Positions 26,951 through 28,327 of a stretch of 64,000 nucleotides of DNA are shown piece by piece. The notes under the pieces are model-generated. The model searched no databases. It worked only from the letters and a program-made list of their open reading frames with translations, and was not told where the DNA came from. The stretch is from positions 3,720,001-3,784,000 of the forward strand of contig NC_089430.1 in NCBI RefSeq assembly GCF_026210795.1, in the 5' to 3' direction. Position 1 is the first letter of the stretch. Every line of letters begins with the position of its first letter. This stretch comes from Rhizophagus irregularis. Lineage: Eukaryota. A program made the translations under genes and the position numbers.

Positions 26951-28327
26951 TTATTTATTCTTTCTCAACTTCTTACTCAACTTCTTATTCAACTTCTTTC
27001 TTGCTTTTTCTTCTTTTGAAGCCATAATATTAGCCTTAGCCTCCAAAAGCATCTTCTCAAACCCTATCTCCTCCATGTGATTTTTGAATTCTTCATCCAA
27101 ACGACGTTCTTCTTCATTTACGGGTACCCTCTCATGAGTGTCTTCGATGACATAACACAACTTATCCGGATGTATTAGATAATTCTTGACTCCTTCTTCC
27201 AAGTCGGATCCCATATATATCAAACTATTCTCCATGTCATTCCACATATGCAAACATTTATCTTCATTTAAAAACCACATTACATATTCAGAACGGTCTA
27301 GATATAAAGGAAAAATTTCAGCGATTCCAAAGGTTTTAGCAAGACGTTCTCTAAAACTCGCATTAAGAAACCGCTGATTCTTTCGTTCCGTGAAGGCGTG
27401 AAGTTCATCCTTCAGTTGATCAAGAAGGTGACACGGGACATCTTGCAATTTAGGCAGGGATACTTCGCCGTTCCATCTGCTACGTCTATTGTGAGAGTCC
27501 GAATTGGAGTGTTGGGCCTTACTTGACTCAAGTGAGTCCATGCGTTCATTTCTGAACAATTGGCATGGTCCCAACGCTCTCGCCTTGCCATCACTTCCAG
27601 ATCCTGATTTCGTGGAAGGATATGTAAAGGGAAATTGGCCAGATCGGTACTCTGCCGAGACTTGACCATGTGTTTTCTGGGATTGCGTCTTCCCGCTATT
27701 GATGCTCCGAATGATACTGCGATTATCTGTTTGTGATTGACTTTCCAAGAGACATTTACAGATGTCGGGCACATCTCCCCCTGGTTTATAGGTTGTAGGA
27801 TGTTTATCCAATTTGTGATCTGGTTTAGGTGTTTGCGTAAAAACACCTTTGGCTTCATAAACTTTTTCGTTCTGCGCTTCCTTGTCTTCCTTTTGCTTGG
27901 AAGAGAATTCTTCGTAGATAGATAAAGTAAAAAGTCCCACACCGTAGTTAATGTTATCATCATAGACCCGAGTGTTCTTATCACTGAAATCGGGATTTGA
28001 TTGCGATCTACGGAGTAGATTGCGTTGTTGATTCTGATGTAGATCATCAAAGAGTATAAACGTTAATGCATGACTTTTTATAAGAAATAAACCCTTTGAG
28101 AAGTACCTGAAATGAAGAAAAAACGTATTGTAGAGATGCAGTTCTCCGCAATTTTGAGCCATTAAAAATATTTCTCTGCAAATCTAAAAAAAAATAATAT
28201 TTGTAAAGAAGCTTTTATTCATAAATTAGTAAACAAAAAAAAAGCTCTAAGACTTACTTCGTTCACCATCCATCTCTGTTTGAGACGAGGGTAGGGCATT
28301 GCAAGTGGGAAAAGTAGAGTTACTCAT
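26951..28327 (-). CDS. Predicted long isoform (about 409 aa): disordered N-terminal/linker region plus C-terminal SUKH/US22-like domain and basic tail
   Basis: Exon 1 28327-28258, intron GTAAGT..TTTAG (74 nt), exon 2 28183-28107, intron GTACTT..CATCAG (73 nt), exon 3 28033-26951, all in phase. The C-terminus FGIAEIFPLYLDRSEYVMWFLNEDKCLHMWNDMENSLIYMGSDLEEGVKNYL fits the SUKH beta-meander plus helix pattern. Confidence 0.65.
27412..27909 (-). CDS. Alternative-frame exon encoding a putative zinc-dependent nucleic-acid deaminase (CxE...PCxxC, YwqJ-like signature)
   Basis: The overlapping frame (track ORF 27412-28050) reads ...IIAVSFGASIAG...RRERWDHANCSEMNAWTHL...IRTLTIDVADGTAKYPCLNCK. It can be joined in phase to exons 1-3 by a 58-nt GTCTAT..GAAG intron (27967-27910), giving about 236 aa. 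Confidence 0.6.
   Translation of the reverse strand, partial: NSLPSKRKTRKRRTKKFMKPKVFLRKHLNQITNWINILQPINQGEMCPTSVNVSWKVNHKQIIAVSFGASIAGRRNPRKHMVKSRQSTDLANFPLHILPRNQDLEVMARRERWDHANCSEMNAWTHLSQVRPNTPIRTLTIDVADGTAKYPCLNCKMSRVTFLIN

Follow-up and report, generated by a model that had tools for sequence, protein, structure and literature searches.

A predicted deaminase and an acidic SUKH-like domain in two overlapping frames of one spliced Rhizophagus irregularis gene

Can a single spliced fungal gene encode two unrelated proteins over the same nucleotides? This question was raised by a locus in a stretch of 64,000 nucleotides (nt) of Rhizophagus irregularis DNA (i.e. positions 3,720,001 to 3,784,000 of contig NC_089430.1; hereafter the window). 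A preliminary description had proposed that a short, nested open reading frame (ORF) of this locus encodes a hidden zinc-dependent deaminase. The nested ORF does lie within a 403-aa ORF, in another frame of the same (minus) strand, and translation of minus-strand positions 27415-27909 yields the quoted peptide with its basic patch, two strands, C-S-E and P-C-x-x-C. The deaminase frame is termed frame A and the longer, enclosing frame is termed frame B. It had been overlooked that frame B is a conserved, real protein too, hence a dual-coding gene. Two long overlapping frames are carried by one spliced transcript and, judged from their sequence evolution, both are very likely maintained by selection.

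The gene model was built by aligning the window with the metagenome loci L002 and L003, in which the ATG, donor and acceptor sites are conserved. Eight of the 24 listed runs were compared with the window, and support came from contigs of X15, X18, X20 and X22 (X20 is an RNA run; X22 was classed as RNA by guess). Frame B begins with an ATG at 28327 and the first ATG of frame A follows 28 nt downstream at 28299, both at the same offset in L002 and L003; an additional in-frame B ATG, used by protein model P0071, lies 9 nt upstream of 28327. The coding part of exon 1 (28258-28327) is spanned by an X22 RNA contig (28258-28332), and intron 1 (28184-28257; 74 nt, GT..AG), which splits both frames, is removed by an X22 joint (28183/28258). 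Exon 2 (28107-28183; 77 nt) codes in both frames and contains a second frame-A ATG at 28162. Splicing of intron 2 (28034-28106; 73 nt, GT..AG) is indicated by short overhangs, not full joints, of 13 nt (X22, into exon 3) and 9 nt (X20, into exon 2) that fit the spliced form. The intron counterparts measure 72 and 68 nt, respectively, in both L002 and L003. Exon 3 (26838-28033) extends to at least 26838 in RNA contigs. In the spliced model, frame A (27412-28299) is open across both introns and encodes 246 aa, and frame B (26951-28327) encodes 409 aa identical to NCBI model RhiirA5_351138 (P0072); named matches to the two frames are R. irregularis proteins. The deaminase ORF had initially been placed at 27412-27909, where the stop is right and the start too short, as the ORF continues up through the two introns to the ATG at 28299. 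The same two starts occur in L002 and L003, with frames A of 245 and 247 aa, and the third frame of the spliced model holds 24-27 stops (window, L002 and L003).

Evidence for the maintenance of frame B was found in the codons of frame A. A T at the third codon position of frame A before AA, AG or GA generates a stop in frame B. At these risk sites, none of 48 window codons carries T, as compared to 55 of 129 codons elsewhere (Fisher p 6e-10). The corresponding counts were 0/40 for L002, 1/42 for L003 and 0/19 for L001, with 41-50% T elsewhere across the window and L001-L003, and comparable sites contained 51-68% T in three window genes with a single frame and in the part that codes for B alone. 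Synonymous recoding or shuffling of frame A introduced a mean of 10-24 stops into frame B, which was open in 0 of 20,000 trials in each of six settings. In the X20 allele, for which 22 of 23 differences are listed, the 19 listed differences within the overlap include no stop in either frame; nine are synonymous and 10 are not in frame A, as compared to five and 14 in frame B.

Frame A might still have been a chance shadow ORF of gene B, the frame that annotation pipelines call, particularly as, in this phase relationship, the sequence of B goes some way towards predicting that of A. This explanation is largely refuted and is scarcely credible. A search with frame A returned 34 matches at E<=0.001, most of them 32-50% identical and retaining the motif. 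Synonymous recoding of frame B left A open in just 27 or 177 of 20,000 trials (<1%), and substitutions concentrate at the third codon positions of frame A (35% versus 15-19%, core). The ratio of nonsynonymous to synonymous substitution rates (dN/dS) of frame A was 0.20 for the leader and 0.22 for the core. Frame-B homologs (25; counted where ungapped at the site) permit the C, E, C and C of frame A in 22/24, 21/24, 23/23 and 23/24 cases against a background of 7-8%, and loci L001-L003, fetched with a query from the C-terminus of frame B, have an intact frame A with C/E/C/C in 3/3. Stretches of four distant frame-A matches (i.e. P0032, P0033, P0040 and P0046) match the frame-B profile with E values of 1e-19 to 0.01, hinting that dual coding extends to these paralogs.

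The product of frame A very probably has the fold of the cytidine deaminase (CDA) superfamily, as predicted from an AlphaFold2 model (predicted local distance difference test [pLDDT] 75, predicted template modelling score 0.72). The model contains the helix-strand-strand-helix-strand-helix core of this superfamily; its strands span residues 94-104, 107-117 and 182-188, and CxxC marks the start of helix 199-210. The predicted zinc site and catalytic acid (27445-27558; C199, E201, C233 and C236) are encoded by minus-strand codons 27558-27556, 27552-27550, 27456-27454 and 27447-27445, with the stop at 27414-27412. Loss of these residues in homologs had been named as grounds for rejecting a deaminase; they are mostly kept in 30 homolog rows (C 22/23, E 21/23, second C 16/19 and third C 14/17 of ungapped rows). 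The suggestion that CxE sits at a helix start holds in part, as the CxE stretch was modelled as coil and a short helix (170-175) begins four residues past E166. The basic patch likened to a nuclear localization signal, a presumed function, is present (27847-27891; 10 K/R in 15 residues) and conserved, with 9-10 K/R per 15 residues in 3/3 full loci (9/15 in L002 and L003). No signal peptide or membrane helix was found in frame A.

The best structural matches of frame A were a cytidine deaminase and a blasticidin S deaminase, both with C-x-E, and four of five matches in a PDB profile search were cytidine deaminases (E 0.38-1.2). These matches would suit a small-molecule deaminase of the cytidine or blasticidin-S type, acting in salvage or detoxification, with the B overlap merely coupling expression. 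Frame A shares with CDD/CDA cytidine deaminases and blasticidin S deaminase (PDB 3b8f, 3oj6 and 2d30) the fold core (model residues 64-210) and the Cys/Cys/Cys plus Glu site, at 6-8% identity in structural alignments, and differs in having an extra N-terminal region, an insert, a C-terminal truncation and the basic patch. The large insert before CxE and the end right past helix 3 are listed as toxin-clade features by Iyer et al. 2011 (PMC3239186). Together with the strongly basic surface and patch, the lack of a Pfam deaminase match for frame A or any of 22 aligned members, and the paralogs' identity of just 25-45%, they make a small-molecule role improbable.

By Iyer et al. 2011 (PMC3239186), deaminases that have Gx[CH]xE, carry an insert ahead of helix 2 and are truncated at the C-terminus are placed in the YwqJ toxin clade, whose toxins are paired with SUKH3 or Imm6 immunity genes and which includes basidiomycete members; defence in heterokaryons is proposed there for a different fungal deaminase clade. 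The YwqJ protein of B. subtilis has been shown to deaminate cytidine in single-stranded DNA (preprint, bioRxiv 10.64898/2026.09.29.755374). In frame A, the G of the helix 2 motif Gx[CH]xE is present in 15/22 ungapped homolog rows (A in the window copy), the insert comprises helix 121-137 plus a loop, with a His before an L-[FL]-P-R motif in some rows only, and the protein is truncated after helix 3/strand 4, ending with helix 199-210, as are those of L001-L003. A profile search for the proposed YwqJ membership gave no PF14431 match at E<=1 for frame A or the 22 members, and direct comparison with two bacterial PF14431 members gave no match (hhalign probability 1.7%); the sole lead was an Atlas cluster (score 0.89) with 11% PF14431. 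Frame A resembles a toxin-type CDA-fold deaminase but failed this profile test, and is therefore provisionally filed as an unassigned YwqJ-like clade. Of the initial proposal, a concealed and conserved CDA-fold protein whose C/E/C/C site is intact is supported, and membership of the YwqJ family is not.

Frame B consists of two dissimilar parts. Residues 1-238 (27467-28327) form a stop-free linker over the deaminase, of which 71% of residues are polar or charged and whose sequence evolution is near-neutral (dN/dS versus L002 of 0.81-1.02 in the overlap). Beyond the overlap lie an acidic domain (27122-27361), a SUKH/US22-like candidate antidote, and a C-terminal part (26954-27121) made up of a long helix and a basic tail; B239-375 has a net charge of -14. 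The domain was modelled with a pLDDT of 81 as a helix (36-46), a four-stranded meander (48-55, 61-67, 72-76 and 81-86), a helix (89-97) and the long C-terminal helix, and its core residues are nearly invariant. The SUKH core, as described by Zhang et al. 2011 (PMC3113570), is a four-stranded meander flanked by helices with an N-terminal hairpin. From the model, the frame B domain is likely SUKH-like and matches the second half of this core. It shares with the SUKH superfamily (Syd/US22/Knr4) the helix, four-stranded meander and helix and an acidic surface. It differs in that the hairpin of strands 1-2 is absent from the model, which has a helix (12-28) there and was built on an alignment of just 18 close rows, in having no Pfam match, and in being fused to a 238-aa overprinted linker. 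In the ESM Atlas, a US22 cluster (0.90; 166 shared features) and SMI1/KNR4 (0.84) stood behind two unnamed eukaryotic clusters. Viral Foldseek matches, led by betaherpesvirus and iridovirus proteins including one named US22, also pointed to this superfamily and were weak (best E 0.06); several of the others belong to the US22 family. Frame B homologs with a long N-terminal part were found in R. diaphanus, R. clarus, Glomus cerebriforme, Funneliformis, Ambispora and Paraglomus, some of these models having predicted introns able to mask stops.

A dN/dS near 1 in the overlap and of only 0.54 beyond it could mean that the linker is mainly a translational device, i.e. a long first ORF damping initiation of frame A and shielding the mRNA from nonsense-mediated decay, with a C-terminal domain of little function. 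This is quite unlikely given the confident fold and near-invariant core of the domain and the better conservation of the B-only part (72% identity as compared to 60% for the overlap in eight homologs). The start of the domain at the end of frame A, and NCBI models that join both frames (e.g. P0003 and P0024), would alternatively fit one fusion product of deaminase and SUKH-like domain, with the frames joined near the end of A by alternative splicing or ribosomal frameshifting. RNA contigs of X15 (26838-27652), X18 (27346-27598) and X20 (27351-28037), however, run uninterrupted over the frame A stop, with no gap or joint, and reveal no intron or indel at this point, the window and the three loci have no slippery heptamer in common, and an open frame B over 246 upstream codons would be needless. 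Such a fusion is very improbable.

The explanation towards which we lean, with considerable reserve, is that frames A and B are a nucleic-acid deaminase toxin and its antidote encoded in one spliced fungal gene. An acidic SUKH-like domain (-14) begins where the basic deaminase (net charge +24) stops, an order known from toxin-immunity operons, and members of the SUKH superfamily have been predicted to confer immunity to deaminase toxins (PMC3113570 and PMC3239186). Ribosomes starting at the first ATG would make B, a disposable linker carrying the acidic domain, and those scanning past it would initiate 28 nt (or 165 genomic nt) further on and produce the basic deaminase, so that toxin output would depend on leaky scanning. 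As A and B are spliced on one mRNA and B is read first, the antidote would always be made alongside the enzyme, probably in excess, and would bind and block it. The enzyme would most likely deaminate cytidine in single-stranded nucleic acid in nuclei lacking a matching antidote, serving self/non-self conflict within a shared cytoplasm. A downstream cistron would be out of reach of a eukaryotic ribosome, and the linker may have solved this by arising through upstream extension of the downstream immunity ORF through the toxin gene, capturing the first ATG; for this reason it would have to stay open yet be free in sequence.

Three observations weigh against a toxin and antidote: L003 has a frame B stop (721-723) with frame A intact, some paralog models are without the SUKH-like domain, and no delivery route is evident for the putative toxin. 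The single stop in L003 may be erroneous, may reflect the recent loss of the putative antidote, or may stand as a counter-example. The missing intact B in L003 would also suit a role in which both frames are real and B is no antidote: A would serve the host by editing or mutating viruses, transposons or RNA, and the co-expressed B would act as an adaptor or regulator. Dual coding is equally firm under that role, the closest named look-alike of B is US22 and not a bacterial immunity clade, and eukaryotic and viral SUKH proteins serve as general partner-binding scaffolds (PMC3113570). The operon-like order, the complementary charges of A and the B domain, and the diversity of a family with many fragmentary members speak against it, and it is given a minor share of our belief. 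A wider form of the toxin-antidote proposal is tentative and rather doubtful: a bacterial-type toxin-immunity operon might have been brought onto one eukaryotic mRNA by overprinting, as a compact selfish or self-recognition cassette that mutates or kills antidote-less nuclei in the arbuscular mycorrhizal coenocyte, polymorphic, largely unannotated and mobile between fungal orders.

The arrangement differs from bacterial operons, wtf drivers and known dual-coding genes alike. In YwqJ toxin/SUKH3-Imm6 operons (e.g. B. subtilis YwqJ/YwqK) the partner is a separate cistron; by contrast, the present gene is eukaryotic and spliced, its partner ORF starts upstream and crosses the entire toxin gene in the other frame, and frame A has neither a detectable PF14431 profile match nor a secretion or trafficking domain. 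The poison and antidote of wtf drivers share frame and sequence. These fission yeast drivers likewise produce poison and antidote from one fungal gene, through alternative transcription starts (PMC5478261 and PMC9762604), whereas here two unrelated proteins would come from two frames of one spliced mRNA with an enzyme as the poison. Eukaryotic dual-coding and viral overprinted genes (PMC1868773 and PMC8227390) have in common with this locus a long same-strand overlap and an ancestral folded frame with a younger disordered frame. The overprinted part here, unlike theirs, appears to be only a spacer between the first ATG and the domain further downstream, and the dual-coding region contains both introns. 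Eukaryotic dual-coding genes include INK4a/ARF and XLalphas/ALEX. A literature search, with subscription papers outside its reach, found no description of such a dual-coded deaminase/antidote arrangement.

Across the family, L001-L003 match the window solely from about the ATG to the stop. The L002-type B protein, 55-64% identical to that of the window, is 94-98% identical in records of Ambispora gerdemannii, A. leptoticha and Paraglomus brasilianum (P0081-P0083), which sit on contigs of 0.6-2 kb; either horizontal transfer or contamination would account for this near-identity. An R. irregularis cluster of 12 records consists of frame B proteins, and the deaminase appears solely as chimeric fragments. 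Models P0024, P0062, P0065, P0066 and P0068 represent a second R. irregularis paralog, combine stretches of both frames and stop just short of the four-stranded meander of B. In P0017 (Joint Genome Institute), the B-frame residues are incompatible with the catalytic Glu and impose a stop on frame A. Judged from the protein alone, each of these changes could be G-to-A, possibly a trace of self-inactivation by the deaminase.

The window is AT-rich and contains eukaryotic genes (tuberin-like, SPT2 and Arg5,6-like). Just upstream of the gene is a 29-nt inverted repeat pair (28516-29437; 97% complementary) resembling a miniature inverted-repeat transposable element, beside which the depth of run X5 is high from 28498 onward, and a further inverted pair lies at 30047-30110/30421-30484. 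A PIF/Harbinger-like element (22902-25896) with 26-nt inverted ends (22902-22927 and 25871-25896) encloses DDE_Tnp_4/Plant_tran fragments and ORF pieces on the opposite strand. Three long ORFs at 48119-52838 (532, 252 and 401 aa) had no Pfam match above cut-off.

Long conserved dual coding is rare among nuclear genes, and at this locus it conceals a whole enzyme family from annotation. As a compact and diverse group of predicted deaminases, this family is a new pool for base-editor screening. Arbuscular mycorrhizal fungi keep thousands of nuclei in one cytoplasm. Should A prove to be a toxin with B as its antidote, the gene would be a testable candidate at the molecular level for conflict between nuclei or for vegetative incompatibility in these fungi and would demonstrate a eukaryotic way of keeping a two-gene operon coupled.
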